Of a stretch of 64,000 nt of DNA, positions 1 to 28,157 are shown piece by piece (position 1 is the first letter of the stretch; each line of letters opens with the position of its first letter). The notes beneath the pieces were generated by a model. It saw only the letters and a list, made by a program, of their open reading frames with translations, searched no databases and was not told the origin of the DNA. The position numbers were made by a program, and so were the translations under genes. Source of the stretch: Deltaproteobacteria bacterium (GTDB taxonomy: Bacteria; Myxococcota; Kuafuiibacteriia; Kuafuiibacteriales; Kuafuiibacteriaceae); NCBI GenBank assembly GCA_040218735.1, contig JAVJQW010000008.1, positions 128,001 through 192,000 on the forward strand, read 5' to 3'.

Positions 1-1618
1 GGCCGAAGATGGCCACCGGCAGCGGCTCGCCCTCGTCGTGGCCGCGGGGGATCGACATCGTGAAGTGGATCTTCTTCAGGTCGAACCGACGGTCCTCGCG
101 GCGCGACCGCGACACCGGGTCCATGAAGTCCGGCGTGATGATCGTCCCGTGCACCACCTTGGCGACGCGCAGCAGCGTCAGCGAGGAGAGCGGGAAGTCG
201 AGCGCCGCCTGGATCGGCGACACCTCTTCGATGTCCATCGGATCGACCGGCGTCTCCGCCGTCGCGGCTGCGTCGCGCGCCTGCCGCATCTTCTCGTAGA
301 CGGACATCGTCTTGAACGACCACGCCGCCGCGACCTCGGTGCGATCCAACGCAAGACGATCCAGCGCGCCGACCGTTCGGCTGCGAACGAACTCCACCCG
401 CGCCGCGGTCTCGCCGTCGAGGGTCCCGAGGTCGGAGCGCCCGTCGACGAACACCGGCGCGTCGAGCATCGCGAGTGTGCCGGGGAGCATCGGGACGAGC
501 GGCTGGCCCTCGGTGTCGAGCAAGCCGGTCGTCACGACGACGACGTGACGCGTCGCGGGCTCGAGCGGCTTGCCGGGGAGCTCGATGGTGATCGACTGGT
601 CGCGCGTCCGCGTGCGCAGCTCGATCTCGACCTCCTCCACGTCGCCGTCTTCGGGCACCGCGTACAGACGCACCGTCTCGGGCGTGAGGGTGCTCGGATC
701 GATCGGGTCGGTGAGCTCGAACGTCAGGTTCGCCGACAGCGCGAACCCGTCCAGCGTCCGCAGGTCCGTCTTGATGTTCTTGAACATCTCGGAGTCGTCG
801 TCGTGGATCGGAATGTCGATCAGCCCGCTCCCCGGGTCGCGGAGGAAGTCGGAGGGCAGCGGCATCTTCCCTTCGTCGGAGTCCATGACGATCGCGGTGC
901 GCGCGCTGACGGTGAACGACCACAGCGACACGACCTCCTCACGCGGGACGCCGAGCGACTCGAGGTGCTCGAAGTACGGGGCGAGCTCGAGTCGGATCTC
1001 CTCGAGTTTCTCGGCCGCCTCCTCGCGCTCCTCGACGGTGTCGCCGGGCAGCGCGTTGACGTGATCCGTCAGCGGCTCCTCGAGGCGGAGGAAGTAGAAC
1101 GCGGCGTCGGCCACGACCTCTTCACCCTCGGCGCCGCGCAGGCCGCGCTCGCCGCCGAGCGCGACGGCGAAGTACGAACGTCCGCGCGTCCACCGACCGG
1201 CGGTCGGGTGGGCGAGGAGTTTCTTCGGGCGGAACTCCGTGTCGCCGTCGACATGGACCTCGACGCTCTTGATCCCCTCCGGGGCGATCTCGAAGACCCG
1301 CAAGTTGTCTTGCGTGACGCTGCGCTCGTCGAGCGGCGCGGTGAAATTCACCTCGGCGTCCATCTCCGGGGGCCACGCGTCGCGCGAGTTGAGCGCGTGG
1401 ATGAACGCGATCTCCGCGGGCGTCTTTTCCTCGAGGTCAGTCGGTTCCGCCGGGATCTGAAGCTGGGGGATCGCGGCGTCGCGCAGGATGTCCGTCGGGC
1501 GTGGGATCTCCCCGGCGTTCGGGTCGAACACCGCCCGTACATAGTCGGGCTCGACACTCGGTGCTTCGAGCGCGCAGCCCAGAGCGAGGGAAGTCAGTGC
1601 AATCGCGGCCTTCCTCAT
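1..1618 (-). CDS. Secreted lipoprotein, lipase-like alpha/beta-hydrolase (Pla-1/cef-like), 3'-truncated by the window edge
   Basis: Absent from the ORF track because no stop falls inside the window. Manual translation gives MRKAAIALTSLALGC (lipobox), DPNAGEIPRPTDILRD and, in the same frame at the edge, GEPLPVAIFG, resembling the PVxIFxHG oxyanion strand. Confidence 0.6.
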   Translation of the reverse strand, partial: MRKAAIALTSLALGCALEAPSVEPDYVRAVFDPNAGEIPRPTDILRDAAIPQLQIPAEPTDLEEKTPAEIAFIHALNSRDAWPPEMDAEVNFTAPLDERSVTQDNLRVFEIAPEGIKSVEVHVDGDTEFRPKKLLAHPTAGRWTRGRSYFAVALGGERGLRGAEGEEVVADAAFYFLRLEEPLTDHVNALPGDTVEEREEAAEKLEEIRLELAPYFEHLESLGVPREEVVSLWSFTVSARTAIVMDSDEGKMPLPSDFLRDPGSGLIDIPIHDDDSEMFKNIKTDLRTLDGFALSANLTFELTDPIDPSTLTPETVRLYAVPEDGDVEEVEIELRTRTRDQSITIELPGKPLEPATRHVVVVTTGLLDTEGQPLVPMLPGTLAMLDAPVFVDGRSDLGTLDGETAARVEFVRSRTVGALDRLALDRTEVAAAWSFKTMSVYEKMRQARDAAATAETPVDPMDIEEVSPIQAALDFPLSSLTLLRVAKVVHGTIITPDFMDPVSRSRREDRRFDLKKIHFTMSIPRGHDEGEPLPVAIFG

Positions 1619-1728
1619 AACGCGCGGAGTCAAATCGATTCCGGAGTCAATGTCTATCCTGCCGCCGGACGAGAGGACGCGCGTCCACACCTCGGACCGC
1701 TGCGTCCAAGGTGGTAGGGTCGCCGGCC

Positions 1729-2052
1729 ATGGCCCTGACGGAGTCGCAGTTCGAGATGCAGGCCGACACCACCCTCAACAAGATGGTGGACGCCCTCGCG
1801 GACCTCGAGGACGACGCGCTCGAGGCGGACCTCGAGAGCGGCGTGCTCAGCCTGCGCTTCGAGGACGGATCCAAGTATGTGGTGAACAGCCATCGCGCGG
1901 CGCGTCAGATCTGGATGGCCGCCGGCGCCACCGCCTGGCACTTCGACTACGACGGGCAGCAGTGGATCGCCGCGAAGTCGGGTGACGAGCTGTGGGATAC
2001 CGTCGAGAAGTGTACGAGCGAGAAGCTCGGCCGTCCCATCCGACTGCGCTGA
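1729..2052 (+). CDS. cyaY: Iron donor protein CyaY (frataxin family)
   Basis: GVLSLRFEDGSKYVVNSHRAARQIWMAA...WHFDY signature; acidic N-terminal helix; about 107 aa. Confidence 0.92.
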   Translation: MALTESQFEMQADTTLNKMVDALADLEDDALEADLESGVLSLRFEDGSKYVVNSHRAARQIWMAAGATAWHFDYDGQQWIAAKSGDELWDTVEKCTSEKLGRPIRLR

Positions 2053-2137: not shown

Positions 2138-3331
2138 ATGAGCAAGGCCGCGACCATCCTGGTGCTGGGCGATCCCGGCCCGTTTCGTAAGGAGCTCCTC
2201 ATCCACAAGGAGATCGAGGTCATCTGGGCGTCGTCCCCGGAAGACGCCGCGCGGATCCTCGCCGACACGACGATCGACGCGTGCATCGTCGCGCCCGAGT
2301 TTCGGGATCGCGTCGACGTGCTGAAGACGGATCTCATCCACGTCCCGTGCATCGCGCTGCAGCCGACGAACCGTGAAGCGCAGCGCCCCGACTTCGCGTC
2401 CGTCGTCGAAGTCGAGAAGGTCGACTCACTCGTCGCGCTCCTCTCCGAGCATACCGGCCTGCAGTTCGCGCGTTACCCGCGCGCCGACGTCCTCGCGCCC
2501 GTCACGCTCCAACACAACGGTCGCGTTCATCACCTCGACTCGATCGACCTGTCGCTCTCTGGCATCGCGATAGCCGCGTTCCCACCCGCGCAGGTCGGCA
2601 CGCGCTTCGAGCTGATCCTCGACGTCGGCGAACGGAGCCTGCACCTCACCGCGCGCGTCGTTCGTTGGTTCGAGCACCAGGGCCAGCGCGCCGCGGGGCT
2701 CACCTTCGTCGACGTGACCGAGTCGCAACGCGAAGTGATCGGCGCGGCGGTCAAGAAGGTCCTGCAGTGGGGTGGCGACGATCGCCTCTCCGCGGACACG
2801 CTGTTCGGTGACCTCGGCCTCGAGAACCTCGAGCCGCAGGCGCTCCGCACGCTCGACGTGGCCAACAAGGTCCCGGCGTTCGTCCTGCGCACACAAGACC
2901 TCGAGATTCCGCGGTTGTGCCAGCTGCTCGACGGCGAAGAGATCCTCGCCCCCGATTGGCTCGGGGAGCTCGCCGAAGATCTCACCGCCGTCGAAGCCGC
3001 CGCGGCGCGCGGGCGCCCCTGTCCGGCGTGGGCGCACCGCGTCCTCCGGCTGCGACTCCACCTCGCGCACGCGAAGAGCACGACGCGGAAGGACAAGATC
3101 CCATCCTCGCTCCTCGACGAGGCGTACCGGGTGTTCGAGTCCCTCCGCGACGAGGGCGTGGGTCAGAGCGGCTCGATGGTTGCGCAGATCGGTCGCATCC
3201 GCGCGGCGCTTCTGCGGAACATCGTCTCCTCGCGGAAGAAGCCGCTCCCCGTTCCGCGCCGCGCCGGGTCCGAGGTGAAGGCGGTCGACGCCTCGGAGAT
3301 CATCACCGGGCCGCTCCCCGCCTTCCGCTGA
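2138..3331 (+). CDS. PilZ-domain protein with degenerate receiver-like N-terminus
   Basis: ARYPR...DLSLSG...ARVVR...GLTF PilZ pattern; N-terminus TILVLGD is REC-like. Confidence 0.7.
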   Translation: MSKAATILVLGDPGPFRKELLIHKEIEVIWASSPEDAARILADTTIDACIVAPEFRDRVDVLKTDLIHVPCIALQPTNREAQRPDFASVVEVEKVDSLVALLSEHTGLQFARYPRADVLAPVTLQHNGRVHHLDSIDLSLSGIAIAAFPPAQVGTRFELILDVGERSLHLTARVVRWFEHQGQRAAGLTFVDVTESQREVIGAAVKKVLQWGGDDRLSADTLFGDLGLENLEPQALRTLDVANKVPAFVLRTQDLEIPRLCQLLDGEEILAPDWLGELAEDLTAVEAAAARGRPCPAWAHRVLRLRLHLAHAKSTTRKDKIPSSLLDEAYRVFESLRDEGVGQSGSMVAQIGRIRAALLRNIVSSRKKPLPVPRRAGSEVKAVDASEIITGPLPAFR

Positions 3332-3334
3332 TTC

Positions 3335-5830
3335 CTACGGCGCGTAGCGAAGCGTCTGCACCGACATCTCCGTCACCAACGCGCGCGTGAGCGGCGCGGG
3401 GAGGAGCGCGTCGAGGTCGCCCTCCGCCACGTTCTCCAACGCCGGCAACACGTCCGCGAAGTGCGGGCTCGTGACGTGCTCGCTCACGCCGGGCGGCGCG
3501 ATCGCTTCCGCCGCGTCCACGTCCGAGAAGTCGATCGACGCGGTGTACGACGTGACGTTCACCGACGCGATCGTGTTGGTGTTGTTGCGGTCGAGTCGAA
3601 CCGACGTGTCGTACTGCGTGTCGAGCGAGCAGAAGTTGGCGTTCGTCGTGTAGTCGAGGCAGCTCCAGTTCGCCTGGAACTGAATCGGCGTCGGCGGCGG
3701 CGGGACGACGCTCGGCCACTGTGACGGGTCGGCGACCACGCCGTCACCGCGCGCGTCGTTCCACAACAGCGCCGCGACGGTGATCGCGAACTGCTGCAGC
3801 TCGGGCGTGACCTGGCCGGTGCGATCGAACGTCTTGAGCGCGAAGGCCACGCCGCCGGCGGCTTCGTTGTACGTGCAGGAGAACTCGGGGTTCGCGCCGT
3901 AGCGGGACTGCTGGATCATGCGCGGCCCGGCGCGGCGGGTGATCGGGAACCACGGGTTCGAATTCTCGATCTGCGCGCCGCTCGCGAGCCACAGCCGCAG
4001 CGCGGCGAGCGTCTTGCCGGCCATCTCGTTGCGCGTCACGCCGAAGTCGTTGGCGGCTGGGATCGAGATCGTCCCACTCGCGAGGAGGGCTTCGAGGACG
4101 TCGGCGAGGAGCTCGACGTGTGTTCCGCCCGCGTCGAAGTGGAACGCGTGGATCGTGCGCGGCGTGACCGCCGCGGACGTCCCGAGCGCGCGATCGAAGA
4201 GGTAGCGGAGTCGGAGGCTGCGGAGCGAGTCACCGTTGCCGGCGAGCCCGGTGTAGCCGACGACGTCGTCGTACCAGCTGCCGACCGGGAGGTGGTTCCC
4301 GGAGAAGAGGTAGCCCTCCGGCGGGTCGATCACGAAGGGGTGCCAGTCGAGGCCGCGGATGCTCCGCCAGTCGTTGGCGCGCGTACTGCCGTCGAACGGG
4401 ATGCGGCCGGTGAGGTCGAGGCCCTGCACGACGTTCCGCACGCGCTCCGGCATCCCGAACAGCGCGTGGTAGGCGATGTGGCCGGGGCCAGTGTCGCCGC
4501 GGTCGACGCCCGCGTAGAGCGCGTTGACGGTCGGCGACATCCACTCGTTCAGCGCGGCCCGGTATTCTGCAAGGGAGGTTGCGCGCATCATGTTCAGGAC
4601 GGCGACCATCGTGTGGCGGTCGGGCTCGAAGTGCTCCACGTGGCGCACGGCGAACTCACGGCCGGCGGGGACGTTCGCCAGTGACTCGGTGACGACGGGT
4701 CCGAAGACCGACTCGCGGATCGTGATGGTGACCGGGGCGCCGAACCGAACGGCGATCGTCTCGGTGTGGGTGTCGTAGGTGAGCGTCTGTCCGTCGACGA
4801 CGTAGCCGGTGCCGCGCGGGGAGAGCTCGAAGAGGTCGCCGATGTCGCCGCCGCCGGCGGTGACGGTCTGGCCGACGTACTCGTTCCAGAAGATGATGAA
4901 GCCGGGCGCGCCCGCGAAGCCGACGCCGCGCGCGTTCATCTCCTGCGTGTGCACGTGAGATTGGTACAGCGGCGAGGGACCGTTGAGCGGGAGCTTCGGA
5001 TCCGTGAACAGCGCGCTCTTGCCGGTGGTGAGCCGCGACCCGTGCACGACCCAGCCGTGGCTCGCCTTGAACTCGATCTCGGGGCGAATCTCCGTGCCCG
5101 GTTGGTGGCAGGCGTAGATGCTCCCCGGCGGCGGCCACTCGCCGTCTTCGGGTTGCGGTACGACCGCGGCGCTCTCGTCGATCGGGCGGTCGCAGGGCGG
5201 GAGGGAGCAGCCGTTGCCATCCTCGCAGTCGAGGAGTTTGTTGATCTCCGACTGGATGTTGGGTCCGCCGAACGCGCGACCGACGAAGTCCCAGACGAGG
5301 AGGGCGTCCTCCGGGCGCCACGGATCGACGCTCGTGATGCCCGCCGACGTGAACGCGTCCGACAGTGTGAAGCTCGAGCTCGCGAGGTACGCGTTGACGC
5401 CGTCGGCGAAGGCCTTCAGGAGCCTGGGCGTGTCGCCGGGGAGGCGGTTCCACTTGGCCTGCGCGATGCGGTCGTAGCCGATGCGTCGGACGAGGCTGTC
5501 CTTCGCGATCAGGTCTTGGTTGAAGGCGCGTCGTTGATTGAGGTCGGCGCCGGTCGCCTGACTCTCGTCCTCGGCGAAGTGCTCCGCGAGGCGGCCTTGC
5601 ATCGCGAGGCGTCGATAGTTCATCTGGAAGAGGCGGTCCTGCGCCTGGGCGTAGCCGAGCCCGTACATCGCGGCGGCGGTGCTGCGCGCGTAGATGTGGG
5701 GAGTGCCGGTTTCGTCGCGCGCGATCGTGACGCTTTCGCCCGTGACGTGATCGAGGGTGGTGGCGGTGTCTTCTGCGCCGCGCTCGCAGGCGAGCAGCGC
5801 GAGCGGGAGCAGGGTGAGGATGCGTTTCAT
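3335..5830 (-). CDS. Penicillin acylase family (Ntn-hydrolase) lipoprotein
   Basis: RDETGTPHIYA and YGLGYAQAQDRLFQM; nucleophile region ASHGWVVHG...DPKL; lipobox LALLAC after MKRIL. Confidence 0.88.
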   Translation of the reverse strand: MKRILTLLPLALLACERGAEDTATTLDHVTGESVTIARDETGTPHIYARSTAAAMYGLGYAQAQDRLFQMNYRRLAMQGRLAEHFAEDESQATGADLNQRRAFNQDLIAKDSLVRRIGYDRIAQAKWNRLPGDTPRLLKAFADGVNAYLASSSFTLSDAFTSAGITSVDPWRPEDALLVWDFVGRAFGGPNIQSEINKLLDCEDGNGCSLPPCDRPIDESAAVVPQPEDGEWPPPGSIYACHQPGTEIRPEIEFKASHGWVVHGSRLTTGKSALFTDPKLPLNGPSPLYQSHVHTQEMNARGVGFAGAPGFIIFWNEYVGQTVTAGGGDIGDLFELSPRGTGYVVDGQTLTYDTHTETIAVRFGAPVTITIRESVFGPVVTESLANVPAGREFAVRHVEHFEPDRHTMVAVLNMMRATSLAEYRAALNEWMSPTVNALYAGVDRGDTGPGHIAYHALFGMPERVRNVVQGLDLTGRIPFDGSTRANDWRSIRGLDWHPFVIDPPEGYLFSGNHLPVGSWYDDVVGYTGLAGNGDSLRSLRLRYLFDRALGTSAAVTPRTIHAFHFDAGGTHVELLADVLEALLASGTISIPAANDFGVTRNEMAGKTLAALRLWLASGAQIENSNPWFPITRRAGPRMIQQSRYGANPEFSCTYNEAAGGVAFALKTFDRTGQVTPELQQFAITVAALLWNDARGDGVVADPSQWPSVVPPPPTPIQFQANWSCLDYTTNANFCSLDTQYDTSVRLDRNNTNTIASVNVTSYTASIDFSDVDAAEAIAPPGVSEHVTSPHFADVLPALENVAEGDLDALLPAPLTRALVTEMSVQTLRYAP

Positions 5831-6042
5831 GCGCCCCGGCCAGAGCAACGCGCGAGCCAATCCGCGCGACGTCGCGGGAGGGCGCCCGCGGGAGGGGGCT
5901 GTCCTCGCGCCCTGTCAGAGGCGTCGGACGATCCTGTCGAACGTGTCGGGTGAAACTGTCACCCGCCGTCGCGGTAGAAGACACCGGCGTCGCCTTGGGC
6001 TCCGACCTTTCGCCGCGCCCCCCTTTCTCCTAAGTTGCGCGC

Positions 6043-17862: not shown

Positions 17863-18744
17863 ATGGACGGGGCGCACGCCACCAGGACGCGCGGCGTGCT
17901 CCTCACCGCCGCGGCGTCGGCGTTCGGGGCGATCTTCCTCGTGCCCTACCAGGCGGCGGTCGCCGCGGGCGACCGTGCCTCCGCGACCGCGGCGATGATC
18001 GCGTCGGCGGCGTTGTTCAACGTCATCGTGGCGATGTGGCGTCGGCGCGGTGTGGAGCCGCCCGCGCCCGGCACGATGCGTGTCGCCCTCGCGCTCGCGG
18101 TGCTCACGATCGTCGGGAACGTCTCGATCGCGCACTCCCTCCCGCAGATCGGCGCGGGCATGACGAGCGTCGTGATGAAGTCACAAGCGGTGCTCACCCC
18201 CCTCATCGCGTGGGTGACGATCCGCGAGAAGGTGAGCCCACACCTCTTCGTCGGCCTCGCGTTCGCGCTCGGCGGGTTCCTCGTCATGCAGTACGCCGAC
18301 GTCGACGCCAACGCGGTCTTCCCGTGGTGGGCGCTCGCGGCGGCGGTGGCGTTCTCGGGGATGTTGATCGTGACGCGCCGCTACATCCGCGGGCGCTCCA
18401 CCACCGACATCAACGCGATTCGGTTGGTGATCGCGGTGGTGCTCCTCTACGCGATCCCCGCCGAGCTCGGCGGCGCGCGGTTCTCGGACGACAGCGCGCT
18501 GTGGATCAACGCAGCGCTCGCAGGGGTGCTCGGACCGGGCATCAGTCGGCTGCTCCTGATGTCGGCGCTCCGCCACGTCACGGCGTCGATGGTCGCGTTG
18601 ATCGGGCTCGTCGGTCCGGTGTTTGCGTTCGTCGTCGCCTACTTCGTGTTCGCCGACGTACCGACGCCGATCGAGATCGCGGGCGCGCTGCTGATCCTCG
18701 GCGGCGTGGCCTGGCCGGTGTGGCGCGCTCAGTCGGTGAAGTAG
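17863..18744 (+). CDS. DMT/EamA family transporter
   Basis: About 10 hydrophobic segments in two repeats; C-terminal GALLILGGV. Confidence 0.8.
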   Translation: MDGAHATRTRGVLLTAAASAFGAIFLVPYQAAVAAGDRASATAAMIASAALFNVIVAMWRRRGVEPPAPGTMRVALALAVLTIVGNVSIAHSLPQIGAGMTSVVMKSQAVLTPLIAWVTIREKVSPHLFVGLAFALGGFLVMQYADVDANAVFPWWALAAAVAFSGMLIVTRRYIRGRSTTDINAIRLVIAVVLLYAIPAELGGARFSDDSALWINAALAGVLGPGISRLLLMSALRHVTASMVALIGLVGPVFAFVVAYFVFADVPTPIEIAGALLILGGVAWPVWRAQSVK

Positions 18745-20078
18745 AAGTAAGTCCCGTTCACGATGTTGAGTCGGGTGTGCCAGCCCTTGGGCATCGTGGG
18801 CCGCGACCAGTAGTACATCCAGCGCGCGTCGGCCGGGGCGAGGTTGGTGCAGCCGTGGCTTCGGGTGTTGCCGAAGACATCGTGCCAGTACGCGCCGTGC
18901 ACCGCGTACGGGCCGCGGTAGTACATCGTCCAGGGCACGTCTTCGACGTGGTAGATGCCTTCGACGGCGTCCTTCCCGCGCATCGTCTTCGTCAGGTACT
19001 TGCGCTGGATCTGGTAGAGGCCGTCCGGCGTATCGCGCCCGGGTTTGCCGGACGAGAACAGGCTCGCGTACACCGGCTCGTCGCCCTCGTACGCGACGAA
19101 GGCCTGCTGCTCGAGATCGAAGTGCACCCACTTCGCGTAGCTCGGAACCTTCGACGGTCTTCGGACCTCGCTCGCGATACGCACGCTGTCCGTGGCCACC
19201 AGCCGATTCCGCGGCGTGACGACGTAGCGCTCGCCGTCGATCTCGACCTGTCGATCGACCTCGAATCGCGCGTGGTGCTCGGCCGTGCCGCACGCTTCGA
19301 GGCCATCCGGTGCGTTGCAGAAGACCGGCTGCGCTTCTTCGTGGTGCACGAACGCAATCGGCAGCTCGACGTGGTCGCCGAGGTGCTCGCCGAGCATCGG
19401 GGAGCCGTTGCGGATCTTCAGCGCGTCCGCCCGCACGTACTCACCGCGAACGGTGCGGAACCAGGTTCGGTCGAGTTTGTTCTCTCGGCGATCGAGCGAG
19501 AGGAAGAAGTCACCGAACATCGGCTCCACCACGACGTTGGGACGCTTTCGTCCCCAGTCGCGGGTCTCGAGGGTGTGAAGCTCGTCGGCGTCGCGCGGGA
19601 GGCGCTTCAGGCGGAGCGCGCCTTTGTCGGTCACACGTGCGTAGCGAAACGGGAGCGGTCGATCCACGTCGGGGCGGCGGGTGTTGGACGCCGGACCACG
19701 CGCTCGCGAGAAGCCGTACGTGTTGCAGAGGTAGCCGCCGTTGGGGAGCGCGTACCAGCGTCCGCGTCTGCCGTTGCAGCGTCGCCACGTGCGCGCGCGT
19801 CGCGCGACGGTCATCGCTCCGCGCCAGAACCGACCGATCACGCGCCGTCCTCGCTGAACCTTGTTGTAGATCGGTGCGCGGAATCGGTCCGCGACGAAGA
19901 CGTAGGGGTGTGCGTCGGTGCCGTCCTCGAACGTGCGTGCGCCGGTTCCGTCGTAGACCGGCGTCCAATCGTCGCGTTCGGGGCCCTCGAGAACGATCTC
20001 TTCCGCGAACGCGTCGTGGGTGGACGCGCAGACGAGGGCGAGTCCGGCGACCGCGCATAGGATGCGTCGATGCCTCAA
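18729..20078 (-). CDS. L,D-transpeptidase (YkuD) family protein
   Basis: YAVHGAYWHDVFGNTRSHGCTNL catalytic His/Cys motif; SSGKPGRDTPDG; signal peptide. Start uncertain (TTG). Confidence 0.85.
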   Translation of the reverse strand: MRHRRILCAVAGLALVCASTHDAFAEEIVLEGPERDDWTPVYDGTGARTFEDGTDAHPYVFVADRFRAPIYNKVQRGRRVIGRFWRGAMTVARRARTWRRCNGRRGRWYALPNGGYLCNTYGFSRARGPASNTRRPDVDRPLPFRYARVTDKGALRLKRLPRDADELHTLETRDWGRKRPNVVVEPMFGDFFLSLDRRENKLDRTWFRTVRGEYVRADALKIRNGSPMLGEHLGDHVELPIAFVHHEEAQPVFCNAPDGLEACGTAEHHARFEVDRQVEIDGERYVVTPRNRLVATDSVRIASEVRRPSKVPSYAKWVHFDLEQQAFVAYEGDEPVYASLFSSGKPGRDTPDGLYQIQRKYLTKTMRGKDAVEGIYHVEDVPWTMYYRGPYAVHGAYWHDVFGNTRSHGCTNLAPADARWMYYWSRPTMPKGWHTRLNIVNGTYFYFTD

Positions 20079-20160
20079 GCCACCTGTGACAGTAGGGGGT
20101 GAGGGTGACCGGCCGCAACCGCGGACCATCGGTTGCGAGCTGCAGTTCGTTCGCTACACT

Positions 20161-21060
20161 GTGCGCGTGCCGCCTTCGTGGAAGGAGAGCGTCGAGCACA
20201 CCGTCCTGCAACACCCGCTCCTCGAGACGAAGCCGTCGCTGGCGGGGTTGCGGGCCGGGCGCGAGGCGCGCCCCGAGACCATCTTCATGGGTTTCGGACT
20301 CTGCACGCAGGCTCGCCTGACTCGCGCTGTACCCATCGACATCCTCGGGATGCTGTTGCCCGGCGAAGCGCTGCGCCGCGCGGCCGGTGCGCGACGAATC
20401 ATCGTGCTGATCGCCGACCGCCACGCCGTCATGCATCACCCCGCGGACGGCGTCGAACGCTGCGCGCGTTACATGCAGCGTGTCCTGGAGCGAGCGTCGT
20501 CGCAGCTTCCGCTCGGGACGTTGGAGGTGTGGCGCGCGTCGGACTTCCACGACGAGCCCGAGTTCAGACGCCGCCTCGATCACATCGACGAGCTCGCGAG
20601 CGACGAAGCCTCGGCGTACCTGCTCCGGCAAGTCGCGGACGTCGATTATCTTCAAGAGAACGTCGGCCCTCTGCTCAAGCTGGGGTGGTGTCTCTCCGGG
20701 CGTCGTGTGCACGACGTCTCGAACCTCTACGACGAGCGCGGCTTCGACGCGTACGTGAAGCCGCTCGCCGGCAAACGCCCGCCGTTCGTCTACGCGAAGG
20801 CGGGGCGCACGCTGAACGACCGTCGCAAGAAGGCACCGCCCTACGTCGTGGCGGAGCCGGAGCGGCGCATCTGCCTCACGCCCGAGGAGGACCCGGTCTC
20901 GAAGCTCGAGCGCGTCAGCAAGGAGGTCTCGCGCGAGACCTACCGCGGTGTGAAGAACCACCTCGCGGCGATCGCGAAGTCATACGCGGACCTCGTCCCG
21001 GACGCCGCGTCGGAGCTCGACGAGCGCCTCGAAGGTCTGGTGAGGAAACTCGCGGCTTGA
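20161..21060 (+). CDS. Hypothetical protein resembling a class Ic aminoacyl-tRNA synthetase catalytic domain (TyrRS/CDPS-like fold)
   Basis: IFMGFG, IIVLIADRHA, WRASDF, YLLRQVADVDYL and RICL..EED..SKL occur in the same order as archaeal TyrRS motifs; no HIGH, KMSKS or anticodon domain. Start uncertain. Confidence 0.5.
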   Translation: MRVPPSWKESVEHTVLQHPLLETKPSLAGLRAGREARPETIFMGFGLCTQARLTRAVPIDILGMLLPGEALRRAAGARRIIVLIADRHAVMHHPADGVERCARYMQRVLERASSQLPLGTLEVWRASDFHDEPEFRRRLDHIDELASDEASAYLLRQVADVDYLQENVGPLLKLGWCLSGRRVHDVSNLYDERGFDAYVKPLAGKRPPFVYAKAGRTLNDRRKKAPPYVVAEPERRICLTPEEDPVSKLERVSKEVSRETYRGVKNHLAAIAKSYADLVPDAASELDERLEGLVRKLAA

Positions 21061-21932
21061 GGTTCTTCGAACGGCTCGCCGTTCGCGGGTTCGACGTCGC
21101 AGCGCGCGGATTCGAGAGGCTCGCCGCGGTGAACGCGGACGCCGCCCGCACCTCGCGTTTCCTCCGCGAGCACGTGCGCATGGAGGCGCGTGCCTCCGAT
21201 ATCTATGTCGCGAGTTATCCGCGCAGCGGGACGACGTGGATGCAGATGGTGCTGCACCAACTCACGACCGACGGCGCGCTCGACTTCGCGCACATCAGCG
21301 AGGTCCAGCCCTGGTACGAGCGGAGCCTCGCGCTCGGTACACGAACGGCGTCGTCGTTCGCGTCGATGGCGTCGCCGCGGGTCTTCAAGAGTCACCTGCT
21401 GCGCCAGTGGTTACCGCGCACAGGGCGCTTCGTGTACGTGGTGCGCGACGTCTGCGATGTCGTCGTCTCGTACCACCGCTTCTACGAGAGTCACCTCGGG
21501 TACCGCGGGACGTTCGATGCGTTCTTCGATCGCTTCGTAGAGGGTCATGTGCAGTACCGGTCGTGGTTCGATCACGTCGCCGCCTGGCGGGACCACGAGG
21601 GGGAGCCGGACGTCTTCTTCGTCGACTACGGTGCGATGAAGGCGGACCCCGTCGCCACGGTGCAGCGGCTCGCGACGTGGCTCGGGTCGACGTCGGTCGA
21701 CGTGGAGCGCGCGGTGGAACGTTCGAGCTTCGCGGCGATGAAGGCTCACGAGTCGAAGTTCGATCCGATCACCGAGCATCTGATCGACCGCGGACACATC
21801 GCGGGTCGTTTCCTACGCGAGGGCAACAGCGGGGTTGGTGCGTCGGCGCTGACGGACGCTCAGCGGGCGCGGCTCTCGGAGCCCGCGACGCGTCGCGTGG
21901 CGCCGTGGGACATCGCGGCGTTCCTTCACTGA
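21057..21932 (+). CDS. PAPS-dependent sulfotransferase (Sulfotransfer_1 family)
   Basis: 5'-PSB YVASYPRSGTTW; KSHL; 3'-PB RDVCDVVVS; FLREG. TTG start overlaps the upstream TGA. Confidence 0.88.
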   Translation: MRFFERLAVRGFDVAARGFERLAAVNADAARTSRFLREHVRMEARASDIYVASYPRSGTTWMQMVLHQLTTDGALDFAHISEVQPWYERSLALGTRTASSFASMASPRVFKSHLLRQWLPRTGRFVYVVRDVCDVVVSYHRFYESHLGYRGTFDAFFDRFVEGHVQYRSWFDHVAAWRDHEGEPDVFFVDYGAMKADPVATVQRLATWLGSTSVDVERAVERSSFAAMKAHESKFDPITEHLIDRGHIAGRFLREGNSGVGASALTDAQRARLSEPATRRVAPWDIAAFLH

Positions 21933-25721: not shown

Positions 25722-28157
25722 TCACCGGAAGACGCGGCGGGTGCTGGCGCCCGGATCGAGCTCGACCTCGGCGCGTTCGACGCGGCCATCGCCGAGGTCG
25801 ACGGCGACGACGACTTTGCGGCACGCGGGGACGTGGACGCGCGCAGGGGTTCGACTGACGCGCCGGCCGTCCACTTCGATCGGTCGGTCGGTCGGTGACG
25901 ACGCGATCGCGATCGTCGCGCGGTCCGAGGGGCGGCAGACGACGAGGCGCACTGCACGCGAACGACCACCTCGGACCACGAACGAGCGTCGCGCCCGCCG
26001 GGTCCCCTCCGGGCGCGCCTCGACGACGTGGCGACCCTCCGCGACGCGCGTCCGGAGCGGGCTGAGTCCCGCGAGCGCGCCGTCCAGGTAGATCGGCGTC
26101 TTCGTCGCGCGGCCCTCGTGGTCCTGCGTGTGGATCTCCACGGCGGTCAGCGACGGGGGCGCGACGTCCGCGGCCCCCGCGCCGGCGTCGGGCGCGTTCG
26201 TGGCGAGGCGCGGTGGTTTCTCCGAGCTCGATCGCGCGCTGTCGCGGTTCGAGGAGGGCGGCGGTGCTTCGCGTGGGACGATCGCGCCGGACGAGCGCGC
26301 GCCGTTCGCGGGCGCGCCGTTCGCGGGCGCGCGGGCTGTCGCCCCGCCGTTCGAGGCTCCGCCGCTCGCGGGCGCGCCCGTCGGTGCGCCGCCGTTCGCG
26401 GTTACGCCGTTCGACGCGCGGCCGCTCGGTGCTCCGCCGTTGGAGGCTCCGCCGCTCGCGCGAGCACCGTTCGCGGGCGCGCGGGCCGTCGCCCCGCCGT
26501 TCGAGGCTCCGCCGCTCGCGCGAGCACCTTTCGCGGTCGCGCCGTTCGCGGTCTCGCCCTTCGCGCGCGCGCGGGCCGACGCCCCGCCGTTCGCGGTTGC
26601 GCCGTTCGACGCTCCGCCGGTTGGTGCTCCGCGGTTCGGCGCTCCGCCGTTCGCACGTGCACCGTTCGCGGTTGCGCGGTTCGATTCTCCGCCGTTCGCG
26701 GTAGCGCCCGTCGGTGCTCCGCCGTTCGCGGTTGCGCCGTCCGACGCGCCTCGCGCCGACGCTCCGCCGTTCGCGGCTGCGCCGTCCGACGCGCCTCCCG
26801 TCGACGCTCCGCCGTTCGCGGCGCCGACCGCCGTCGCTCCGCCGTTCGCGGCTGCGCCATTCCACGCGCCTCCCGCCAACGCTCCGCCGTTCGCGGCCGC
26901 GCCGTCCGAGGCTCCGCCGATCTCTGCGCCGCGGATCGCCGCCACGGCGTTCGAGCCCATGGGCGACGGCTCCGCCGCGCGCCTCTCTGCAGACGTCCCC
27001 GACCGCGGGACGACGACGGGCTGCGCCTCCACGCGGCTGACACTCGCCGCGGCCACGGGCGCTTCGCCCGACGATCGCGGGGCGGCCTGCATGGCAACGA
27101 TCGCGATCGCCGCCGCCATCGCGACGGCGCCCCACAGCCACCAGCGGCGCCTCGGCGGTTCGGCCGGGGTGGCTTCGATCTTCGTGTCCACGGGCGCGGC
27201 GATCGCGATCGGAACCGTCGGCGGGGCTTCCGGTTCCAGCTCGTGGACATCCGTCGAGTGCGCCACGAGGGGCAGCGCATCGATGGTGCCGCTCGGCGGC
27301 GCGGACAAGTCGAGCTCCGCGAGTCGCGCCTCGAGCTCGGCGGCGCTGGGCCGCGCCTCGGGGACGAACGCCAGGCAGTCCTCGATCAGCGCTTCGAGCC
27401 CGTCGATCGAGCGGACGTCGCCGAGCTCGAGCGGCGGTCGCAGCCCGAGTGACTTGTTGTGCATGATCGCGATCGCGGTGCCTTCGTACAGGCGCCGCCC
27501 CGTGCACATCTCGTGGAGCAACAGACCGAGCGCGTACACGTCCGACGCCGCGGTCACGCCGTCGTTGGTCACCTGCTCGGGCGCCATGTAGCGCGGCGTC
27601 CCGAGGAAGACGCCCGTCGCGGTGAGCGAGGCTTCGTCATCGAGGTGGTGTTCGAGCTTCGCGATACCGAAGTCGAGGAGCTTCAGGGTGCGGCCGTCCG
27701 GGAGGACGAAGACGTTCGACGGCTTGAGGTCGCGATGGGTCACGCCGGCTTCGTGCAGCACGACGAGCGCGTGTGCGATCTGCGTCGTGAAGTCGACGGC
27801 GCGTTCGATGGTGATCGGCCCCTCGGCGAGGAACCGGTCGAGCCCCTTGCCGTCGAGGAGCTCCATCACGAGCGCGACGCACGGCGGATCGTCCGACTCG
27901 ATGAAGTCGAAGACGTCGACGAACGACGGGTGTCGGATCTGATTGACGATGCGCGCCTCGCGCATCATGCGCGCGACCGCTTCGGGGTCCGCGGACTGTC
28001 CGGGGACGAGGATCTTGATCGCCGCGGTGCGCCCCAGCCGAACGTGTGTCGCGCGGTAGACCGTGCCGACGCCGCCTCGACCGATCACGCCGTTGAGGCG
28101 AAAGCTGCCGAGGGTCGAGCCGATAGGTACGGGGAGTGTGCGTTTCTTCGGGGGCAC
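25722..28157 (-). CDS. Membrane Ser/Thr protein kinase with Gly/Ala/Asn pentapeptide-like repeat region and PEGA domain
   Basis: GRGGVGTVY, AAIKIL, HRDLKPSN, DFG, YMAPEQ; TM after RRRWW; PEGA-like IYLDGALAGLSPL...GRHVVEAR. Confidence 0.9.
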   Translation of the reverse strand: MPPKKRTLPVPIGSTLGSFRLNGVIGRGGVGTVYRATHVRLGRTAAIKILVPGQSADPEAVARMMREARIVNQIRHPSFVDVFDFIESDDPPCVALVMELLDGKGLDRFLAEGPITIERAVDFTTQIAHALVVLHEAGVTHRDLKPSNVFVLPDGRTLKLLDFGIAKLEHHLDDEASLTATGVFLGTPRYMAPEQVTNDGVTAASDVYALGLLLHEMCTGRRLYEGTAIAIMHNKSLGLRPPLELGDVRSIDGLEALIEDCLAFVPEARPSAAELEARLAELDLSAPPSGTIDALPLVAHSTDVHELEPEAPPTVPIAIAAPVDTKIEATPAEPPRRRWWLWGAVAMAAAIAIVAMQAAPRSSGEAPVAAASVSRVEAQPVVVPRSGTSAERRAAEPSPMGSNAVAAIRGAEIGGASDGAAANGGALAGGAWNGAAANGGATAVGAANGGASTGGASDGAAANGGASARGASDGATANGGAPTGATANGGESNRATANGARANGGAPNRGAPTGGASNGATANGGASARARAKGETANGATAKGARASGGASNGGATARAPANGARASGGASNGGAPSGRASNGVTANGGAPTGAPASGGASNGGATARAPANGAPANGARSSGAIVPREAPPPSSNRDSARSSSEKPPRLATNAPDAGAGAADVAPPSLTAVEIHTQDHEGRATKTPIYLDGALAGLSPLRTRVAEGRHVVEARPEGTRRARRSFVVRGGRSRAVRLVVCRPSDRATIAIASSPTDRPIEVDGRRVSRTPARVHVPACRKVVVAVDLGDGRVERAEVELDPGASTRRVFR
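26290..26918 (-). repeat. Degenerate 15-bp tandem repeat encoding ANGGA/SNGAT-type pentapeptides
   Basis: Recurrent gctccgccgttcgcg / gcgccgttcgcg units on the + strand over about 630 bp. Confidence 0.8.

Follow-up and report, generated by a model that had tools for sequence, protein, structure and literature searches.

A tyrosyl-tRNA synthetase-like protein family without the ATP-binding signatures and its linkage to a sulfotransferase and an L,D-transpeptidase in Myxococcota

Paralogues of aminoacyl-tRNA synthetases that lost amino acid activation have revealed new biochemistry, as in the cyclodipeptide synthases (CDPSs) and in HisZ, GluQRS and PoxA. The CDPSs provide the precedent for the use of aminoacyl-tRNA in place of ATP, and HisZ is a HisRS-like regulatory partner. 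Here we describe a further family of this kind, encoded in a 64,000-nucleotide (nt) stretch of a Myxococcota genome of 11.6 Mb and ~69% G+C (contig JAVJQW010000008.1, positions 128,001 to 192,000; the whole stretch is hereafter called the window). The family represents a hitherto undescribed branch of the class Ic synthetase-like proteins, lacks the two ATP-binding signatures of tyrosyl-tRNA synthetase (TyrRS), and is linked in this phylum to genes for a sulfotransferase and a secreted L,D-transpeptidase. Tentatively, and with less than even confidence, we propose that the protein is a TyrRS-derived, non-activating enzyme that binds tyrosyl groups downstream of TyrRS and feeds a sulfated, tyrosine-derived unit to the dedicated transpeptidase for use in the wall. 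Literature searches, which covered articles without their supplements, retrieved no paper on a TyrRS-like protein paired with a sulfotransferase, on TyrRS-like paralogues, on synthetase-like families other than the CDPSs, or on the combination of sulfotransferase, transpeptidase and tyrosyl-tRNA.

Fold and conserved signature of the synthetase-like protein

The locus comprises the following features, with coordinates counted from the first letter of the window:

18729..20129, minus strand: secreted L,D-transpeptidase-like protein, 466 amino acids (aa) from ATG 20129, alternative start TTG 20078; PF03734
20130..20160, no strand: very short gap separating the divergent transpeptidase and TyrRS-like genes, 31 nt long; a transpeptidase start at TTG 20078 would widen it to 82 nt
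20161..21060, plus strand: TyrRS-like family gene without HIGH or KMSKS, 299 aa, alternative start GTG 20167
21057..21060, plus strand: TTGA overlap of the family-gene stop with the sulfotransferase start, read from the sequence; candidate translational coupling
21057..21932, plus strand: cytosolic SULT1-type (phenol/aryl) sulfotransferase using 3'-phosphoadenosine 5'-phosphosulfate, extended by a conserved N-terminal stretch, 291 aa from TTG 21057; PF00685

The longest open frame of the TyrRS-like gene spans 20020-21060. Because the divergent gene reaches 20129 and the conserved part of the protein begins at about residue 19, the usable start is GTG 20161 or GTG 20167. The stop codon (TGA, 21058-21060) overlaps the TTG of the sulfotransferase gene (21057-21059), and the downstream product is a PF00685 protein (E 3e-38), as an earlier sequence-only reading of this DNA had it. 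The sulfotransferase is likely to start near TTG 21057 rather than at ATG 21180, since the N-terminal extension upstream of its PRSGTT loop is kept in 16 orthologues, with conserved D28, R31 and L36 (numbering of the 291-aa reading).

Sequence comparisons of the single TyrRS-like protein with known families returned little. Pfam gave nothing significant, with no PF00579 match at E<=1 and Serum_albumin as the best model (E 0.11, well below the cut-off). Only the archaeal TyrRS model NF006330 appeared in NCBIfam (E 0.065, 12.2 bits against a cut-off of 220), and neither the protein sequence nor an 8-sequence profile found a meaningful match among the chains of the Protein Data Bank (PDB). The structural model, by contrast with these sequence scores, has the shape of a TyrRS. 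An AlphaFold2 (AF2) model built from eight homologues (pLDDT 80.6, pTM 0.84) retrieved with Foldseek a top 50 made up entirely of TyrRS or engineered TyrRS, at E 1e-8 to 9e-7. An exhaustive structural comparison (VIA) placed Aeropyrum TyrRS 2cya first (Z 19.0, root-mean-square deviation 3.7, 253 of 299 residues, model range 5-299), followed by the Mimivirus, human and Leishmania TyrRSs and then by tryptophanyl-tRNA synthetases (TrpRSs; Z 13.9-15.9). The CDPSs scored Z 9.3-13.8 over 154-182 residues, below every TyrRS and TrpRS row (Z 13.9-19.0), and PvcA reached Z 9.3. Judging from this model, the protein adopts a class Ic fold, with a Rossmann catalytic domain and connective peptide 1 (CP1) in the TyrRS/TrpRS arrangement; the model thus agrees with the synthetase-like fold proposed from the sequence, so that a fold outside class Ic, which would have overturned that reading, is not seen, and it places the protein closer to full-length TyrRS than to the CDPSs. 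The anticodon domain, described in that reading as absent, may be present in reduced form: ~55 C-terminal residues (245-299) align within TyrRS chains, up to residue 339 of 2cya, although this region is shorter than in those chains and of low pLDDT at its end. A variable loop is inserted at residues 178-190.

The protein is not the orphan it had been taken for. A family profile searched against 1.84 billion representatives recovered 525 related clusters at E<=1e-3, of which 220 still match at E<=1e-30, clusters being defined at 50% identity. In an alignment of 126 full-length members, G44, G46, P58, Y153, K173, W176, E192, P227 and R236 are invariant; D60, D86, D191, D196, G215 and Y228 are conserved in at least 98% of the sequences, and A85, H88, A89, S127 and D160 in ~90% or more (D160 in 116/126). 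Position 157 is divided between Glu (65/126) and Gln (61/126), and position 159 is Ala in 100/126. The motifs picked out in the sequence-only reading are all present in the order given, namely IFMGFG (residues 41-46), IIVLIADRHA (80-89), ASDF (126-129), YLLRQVADVDYL (153-164), KLGW (173-176), DERGFD (191-196) and RICLTPEED (236-244), and they are not chance resemblances, falling mostly on columns that are invariant or at least 90% conserved. The reported loss of HIGH and KMSKS is equally clear. No His occurs in residues 47-62, and the invariant P58-x-D60 occupies the place of HIGH; the loop at the KMSKS position reads RRKKAPPYV (family consensus R-P-K-A-x-P-Y) and nothing like KMSKS is present, this place being taken in the family by an invariant P227-Y228...R236.

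With hhalign, alignment first to three TyrRS domains and afterwards to a profile of 61 archaeal-type TyrRS rows gave probabilities of 18-47%, with 47% and E 2e-4 for the profile; this is weak, the global alignment is unreliable in its second half, and the three motif blocks alone are usable. In these blocks ADxHA pairs with ADIHA, RAS with GSxF, and Y153-xxx-Q157-xx-D160 with YPxxQxLD. We take the equivalence to Methanocaldococcus jannaschii TyrRS numbering from this motif register. The tyrosine pocket of that enzyme is formed by Y32, G34, Y151, Q155, D158 and Q173, of which Y32 and D158 bind the phenol hydroxyl and are replaced by hydrophobic residues (Leu) in the CDPS AlbC, according to PMC3105412. 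By motif register, and not by superposition, the corresponding residues appear conserved with equal spacing in the family as F/Y42, G44, Y153, Q/E157, D160 and E192. Thus, because the spacing of the pocket is that of TyrRS, the phenol-binding Asp appears to be retained as D160, and D191-E192 would be the retained ribose-side D-E pair. The signature [F/Y]xG, ADxHA, YxxxQ/ExxD and D191-E192 is kept across the family, at the level of aligned motifs, and fits the aromatic, tyrosyl substrate suggested earlier.

With both class I signatures replaced by residues without His or Lys, it seems scarcely credible that the protein is an ATP-dependent amino acid ligase activating tyrosine through a non-canonical nucleotide site made of the new invariant motifs. 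Such a site could be built around the acidic D191-E192, which by motif register stands at the place of the TyrRS GxDQ motif, and other HUP-fold enzymes bind ATP without KMSKS; the recurrent physical link of the family to a complete TyrRS (see below), however, argues that activation is done by the latter.

The class Ic fold without ATP motifs, the CDPSs among the structural matches and the YxxxE arrangement shared with CDPSs by about half of the family are also what one would expect of a CDPS-like or otherwise tRNA-dependent small-molecule synthase. This was the function put forward in the sequence-only reading, with the coupled sulfotransferase sulfating a secreted natural product and the transpeptidase irrelevant. 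We tried CDPS membership as a candidate and rejected it: neither GxSxxN nor YxxxExP is present, no Pfam CDPS model matches, and the fold similarity exists but is weaker than that to TyrRS. The nucleophile position (G44-x-G46) holds an invariant Gly, and the window clade carries Q157 and A159 where CDPSs have Glu and Pro (PMC3105412). The earlier reading was correct that the CDPS signature is lacking, and the family is indeed distinct, as it had suggested. As an account of function, the CDPS-like synthase is further weakened by the gene neighbourhoods described next, and we consider it highly improbable.

A three-gene module in Myxococcota

Among 401 sampled genomes of the phylum (tallies include one unpublished genome, G195), the family is present in 19, including 12 of the 19 genomes of the window's taxonomic family. 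We compared 8-kb flanks for 17 of the other 18 family-positive genomes, G195 being left out. Conservation in these flanks is limited to three genes: the transpeptidase (17/17), the family gene itself (17/17) and the sulfotransferase (16/17); every other gene of the window recurs in the same-genus genome only. With the window counted, 17 of 18 loci have the three genes side by side, and five arrangements are seen across the 18. The transpeptidase is divergent from a family-sulfotransferase pair in 6 loci and from a sulfotransferase-family pair in 7; on one strand, the order is family-transpeptidase-sulfotransferase in 3 loci and transpeptidase-sulfotransferase-family in 1. The last locus, L022, has transpeptidase-family with no sulfotransferase, and its ABC permease neighbours are not informative. 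In the other loci the family and sulfotransferase genes overlap or lie within ~40 nt of each other in either order. Because adjacency has been kept while gene order was shuffled, function, rather than inheritance alone, is likely to hold the module together.

The co-occurrence across genomes follows the same pattern. The N-domain of the transpeptidase is found in 27/401 genomes, including all 19 family-positive ones, and sulfotransferase orthologues (at least 359 bits; paralogues at most 224 bits) in 21/401, including 17 of the 19. The sulfotransferase is thus a conserved and tightly linked partner, in line with the earlier reading. The divergent transpeptidase, previously set aside as possibly coincidental, is the most constant partner of all, and the reading shifts accordingly, away from a stand-alone natural-product pair and towards a module of the cell envelope. 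The 17 genomes share no further biosynthetic or tailoring gene in this neighbourhood, specifically no oxidase, methyltransferase, P450 or transporter, which together with the transpeptidase in 19/19 genomes speaks against a stand-alone biosynthetic pair and the CDPS-like synthase considered above.

The best PDB sequence matches of the sulfotransferase are SULT1C2, phenol sulfotransferases and a tyrosine-ester sulfotransferase (E ~1e-29). Its PRSGTT loop, H113, R130 and S138 are invariant in 17 orthologues, and we take these to be the 5'-phosphosulfate loop, the catalytic His and the 3'-phosphate-binding Arg and Ser, respectively. The transpeptidase carries a C-terminal YkuD domain (PF03734, E 8.4e-16) with an invariant active-site motif, H411 and S424-H425-G426-C427-x-N429, preceded by a family-specific N-domain of ~285 aa with four invariant Cys (C118, C135, C271 and C280). 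The N-termini of its orthologues are hydrophobic and signal-like.

Six loci of the transpeptidase subfamily (L058-L063) contain no family gene, and the family hidden Markov model (HMM) found nothing in them. Between the sulfotransferase and the transpeptidase, L058 has a class I/II aminotransferase (3160-4515, minus strand) and L059 a TauE/SafE anion exporter (2876-3646, plus strand); in L060 the two genes are spaced as in L058, around an intervening open reading frame (ORF). In L061 (5722-7065, minus strand), L062 (5814-7151, minus strand) and L063 (1489-2655, plus strand), which have neither a TyrRS-like gene nor a sulfotransferase orthologue, the gene immediately upstream of the transpeptidase gene and co-directional with it encodes a PF01053 Cys/Met-metabolism pyridoxal 5'-phosphate enzyme (3/3). 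Since other partners replace the family gene where it is absent, the transpeptidase would be the hub of the system, and its partners cytoplasmic enzymes that bind or transform amino acids.

Elsewhere in the window, two ORFs are unusual in composition. The one at 25722-28157 (minus strand) begins with a Ser/Thr-kinase-like N-terminus (HRDLKPSN, by eye), followed by several hundred residues of Gly/Ala/Asn-rich near-repeats of the GGASNGA type, at 74% G+C. The 1103-aa protein at 13147-16458 (plus strand) begins like a lipoprotein and contains numerous Asp-rich repeats of the DxDxDG type, which by eye resemble thrombospondin type 3 repeats, and is conserved in the same-genus genome only.

Fusion and adjacency to TyrRS in Patescibacteria

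Among the 150 best matches to the family, five exceed 500 aa, and three of these are fused to an authentic TyrRS, which either precedes or follows the family domain and is of bacterial or archaeal type: P0079 (bacterial-type TyrRS, then the family domain), P0082 (family domain, then bacterial-type TyrRS) and P0089 (family domain, then archaeal-type TyrRS, E 1e-95). A fourth long member carries a GNAT domain of PF13480, which we take to be Fem-related. P0132 (810 aa) has an N-terminal region of ~520 aa without a Pfam or NCBIfam match, and P0091 and P0134 have unexplained N-terminal extensions of ~150 aa. A 50-row alignment used to look for longer, fused homologues gave no scoring match, which is weak evidence.

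A search for related loci with the single TyrRS-like protein returned no relative. When species-representative genomes were scanned with an alignment of five rows, 17 loci were recovered, nearly all in Patescibacteria metagenome-assembled genomes (MAGs); these form one clade of related genomes and are not independent. In 14 of the 17 loci the family gene has a TyrRS/PF00579 gene no more than 6 kb away (12 identified by blastp, L048 and L053 by Pfam); of the other three, L046 lies at the end of its contig, and L051 and L054 have no TyrRS gene over that distance. Five genomes were checked for further copies, and two of them have, besides a TrpRS-sized PF00579 gene, a single TyrRS-sized one, which is the copy linked or fused to the family gene. 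In L054, a Falkowbacteria MAG, the family gene is apparently split into two adjacent ORFs (509-1003 and 1025-1768, plus strand), which may be genuine or result from a frameshift or an error of assembly.

The neighbours in these loci are of a recurring kind. Enolase-superfamily genes, scoring as OSBS/NSAR, N-acetyl-D-Glu racemase or L-Ala-D/L-Glu epimerase, are present in 11/17, Peptidase_M15/VanY in 6/17, GCS2-type carboxylate-amine ligases in 5/17, GATase1/C26 in 3/17, YbaK-type tRNA_edit domains in 3/17 (one fused to a synthetase), an Asp/Glu racemase with a Mur ligase in 1/17 and a SulP permease in 1/17. A 409-aa protein (cluster c2; 6/17) is GNAT-like by an Atlas feature search only (0.95), with no Pfam or PDB sequence support for that assignment. 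The editing genes take two forms: L053 encodes a 496-aa PF00579 (Tyr/Trp-type) synthetase with an N-terminal YbaK-type tRNA_edit domain (4445-5935, plus strand), and in L047 and L048 the family and synthetase genes are separated by a stand-alone tRNA_edit gene. According to PMC6765224, TyrRS has very low stereoselectivity and no editing domain; should the L053 enzyme be a TyrRS, its fusion would be unusual. The gene immediately upstream of the family gene in L047 belongs to the SulP/STAS sulfate-permease family (4251-5954, plus strand), a second and possibly chance connection to sulfur.

These contexts could point to a role in tRNA(Tyr) quality control, in which the protein would bind the tyrosyl-A76 end and hydrolyse mischarged tRNA(Tyr), carrying for example D-Tyr or a tyrosine analogue. 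The D- or abnormal tyrosine set free would then be sulfated, converted or built into the wall by the products of the neighbouring genes. Fusion and adjacency to TyrRS, the intervening or fused editing domains and the loss of the phosphate motifs with the pocket kept would all suit an ATP-independent hydrolase, as would the low stereoselectivity of TyrRS just cited. The gene clusters, moreover, resemble an acylate-racemise-deacylate shunt (GCS2-like ligase or possible GNAT, NSAR-like enolase, M15/C26 hydrolase), and NSAR genes occur in operons of a D-amino-acid conversion pathway according to PMC12006748. We nevertheless consider quality control, taken as a whole, unlikely. In the window's phylum the family is linked to neither a TyrRS nor an editing gene, and its constant partner there is a periplasmic transpeptidase; the family is rare in Patescibacteria (3/301 sampled genomes), and the GNAT in the proposed shunt is no more than an Atlas lead. 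All 5 family-positive Patescibacteria genomes lack DTD (PF02580), but this carries no information, as the gene is present in only 11 of a sample of 81 genomes from the phylum.

Fusion to TyrRS would also suit a non-catalytic tyrosine-binding subunit, a HisZ-like regulatory or specificity partner of the sulfotransferase or of TyrRS, the latter as a pseudo-dimer of the trypanosomatid kind. The tyrosine pocket kept without ATP motifs, the tight coupling to the sulfotransferase gene in both orders, and the double-length Leishmania TyrRS 3p0h among the structural matches of the family protein (Z 16.2) are consistent with such a role. The AF2 model of P0079 speaks neither for nor against a pseudo-dimer: its domains are folded, with no confident inter-domain arrangement (pTM 0.51), and the 50 Foldseek matches listed are all single-length TyrRSs (TM by query 0.27-0.39), with no double-length enzyme among them. 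The conserved polar residues away from the pocket that replace HIGH and KMSKS (P58, D60, K173, W176, D196, P227, Y228 and R236), however, look like an active site in their own right, and we judge the subunit quite unlikely.

Proposed function and comparison with known systems

We return to the non-activating tyrosyl-binding enzyme as our tentative preference. Because the residues that would hold tyrosine are kept, those for the ATP phosphates are lost, and the protein is fused or adjacent to a complete TyrRS elsewhere, we propose that it no longer activates tyrosine with ATP and still binds a tyrosyl ester. The likeliest ligand would be the tyrosyl-adenosine end of Tyr-tRNA(Tyr), or Tyr-AMP, supplied by the real TyrRS of the cell, and the tyrosyl group might be transferred or released, as CDPSs do with aminoacyl-tRNA. 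The cytoplasmic SULT1-type sulfotransferase would then O-sulfate the phenol of the released or transferred tyrosine-derived product, and the dedicated secreted transpeptidase would use or process the sulfated product in the periplasm. L,D-transpeptidases exchange free D-amino acids onto the stem peptide of peptidoglycan. The likeliest route would accordingly be such an exchange, installing the product on the stem peptide as a non-canonical amino acid or peptide unit. We propose a wall unit because the constant partner is a periplasmic L,D-transpeptidase whose replacement partners are amino acid enzymes, and because the Patescibacteria neighbours handle amino acid stereochemistry and D-Ala-D-Ala-type peptides.

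Several observations weigh against this proposal. Two family-positive genomes have no sulfotransferase orthologue, and four genomes have the sulfotransferase and transpeptidase without the family, which is thus not obligatory for that pair. No exporter is conserved in the module within the 8-kb flanks of the 17 genomes, and the co-occurrence counts overstate their support, since closely related genomes do not count independently. In the window's phylum the family gene has no TyrRS gene next to it. Linkage to TyrRS was seen in another clade, which shares ~30% identity with the window clade and has Glu at position 157 in all 17 of its loci, whereas the window clade has Gln in all 18 of its loci; the chemistry may therefore differ between the two. 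Net charge and isoelectric point, calculated for 172 members, are inconsistent between clades, and net charge gives no consistent sign of tRNA binding. The TyrRS relation is weak at the sequence level (hhalign 47%, no PDB or Pfam sequence match), and the residue equivalences come from motif register rather than superposition. The proposal as a whole is drawn from sequence, model and gene context.

The family would add a further class Ic lineage to those known, one that is large and unannotated, and whose function is open to direct test because its genomic partners are unusually clear. In Myxococcota, a putative tyrosine-binding enzyme and an aryl sulfotransferase are tied to a specialized L,D-transpeptidase, suggesting an unreported sulfated, tyrosine-derived modification of the envelope. 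In Patescibacteria, the family is fused or adjacent to the housekeeping TyrRS, beside racemase/epimerase-type and D-Ala-D-Ala-peptidase-type enzymes, and may bear on D-tyrosine handling or wall building in these reduced organisms. In its boldest form, which we regard as a long shot, the proposal would amount to a new route of cell-wall editing: a TyrRS-derived enzyme takes Tyr, possibly in the D-form or epimerized, from Tyr-tRNA(Tyr), a SULT-type enzyme O-sulfates it, and a sulfotyrosine-type unit is placed on peptidoglycan, making the family a third class Ic lineage that works with TyrRS, beside TyrRS/TrpRS and the CDPSs.

Among described systems, HisZ and the double TyrRS of Leishmania (3p0h) resemble the family in being synthetase copies without aminoacylation motifs, and the natural fusions of the family with TyrRS recall the double-length enzyme. 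They differ in that the family has its own invariant polar residues and is mostly encoded by a separate gene, and the pseudo-dimer geometry is not recovered in the P0079 model. The trans-editing factors DTD and YbaK may have a substrate in common with the family, (D-)Tyr-tRNA(Tyr), and have different folds. With FemXAB/MurMN, which are mentioned in PMC6765224, we propose a functional analogy, in which aminoacyl-tRNA would be the source of an amino acid for wall peptides. A GNAT domain (PF13480) is fused to one family member, but FemXAB/MurMN have the GNAT fold and the family a predicted Rossmann fold, and for the family a transfer activity is only a proposal by analogy.

The CDPSs (AlbC and Rv2275) share with the family a class Ic origin, the loss of the ATP motifs and an aminoacyl pocket that is reused at the G, Y and E/Q positions (PMC3105412). 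Their structural match is the weaker one and is confined to the Rossmann/CP1 part. In that paper, the catalytic Ser of GxSxxN is S37, which corresponds to Gly46 in 126/126 family members, and AlbC has Leu where the family keeps the phenol-binding Asp. The Pro of YxxxExP is Ala in the family (Y153-xxx-Q157-x-A159 in the window protein), and the family protein is ~70 residues longer, with a C-terminal helical region and other gene neighbours. The archaeal and eukaryotic TyrRSs (2cya, 1j1u and 1n3l) come closest. In the model, the whole-chain fold is shared, including CP1 and part of the C-terminal helices (Z 17.5-19.0), ADxHA, the (G/A)S strand and YxxxQxxD are common to both in the same order and register, and the minimal archaeal enzymes equal the family protein in length, at ~300 aa. 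Unlike these enzymes, the family protein scores below every TyrRS HMM threshold, has in place of HIGH and KMSKS an invariant PxD and PY...R together with K173, W176 and the variable loop 178-190, and belongs to a gene context of the cell envelope and not of translation.

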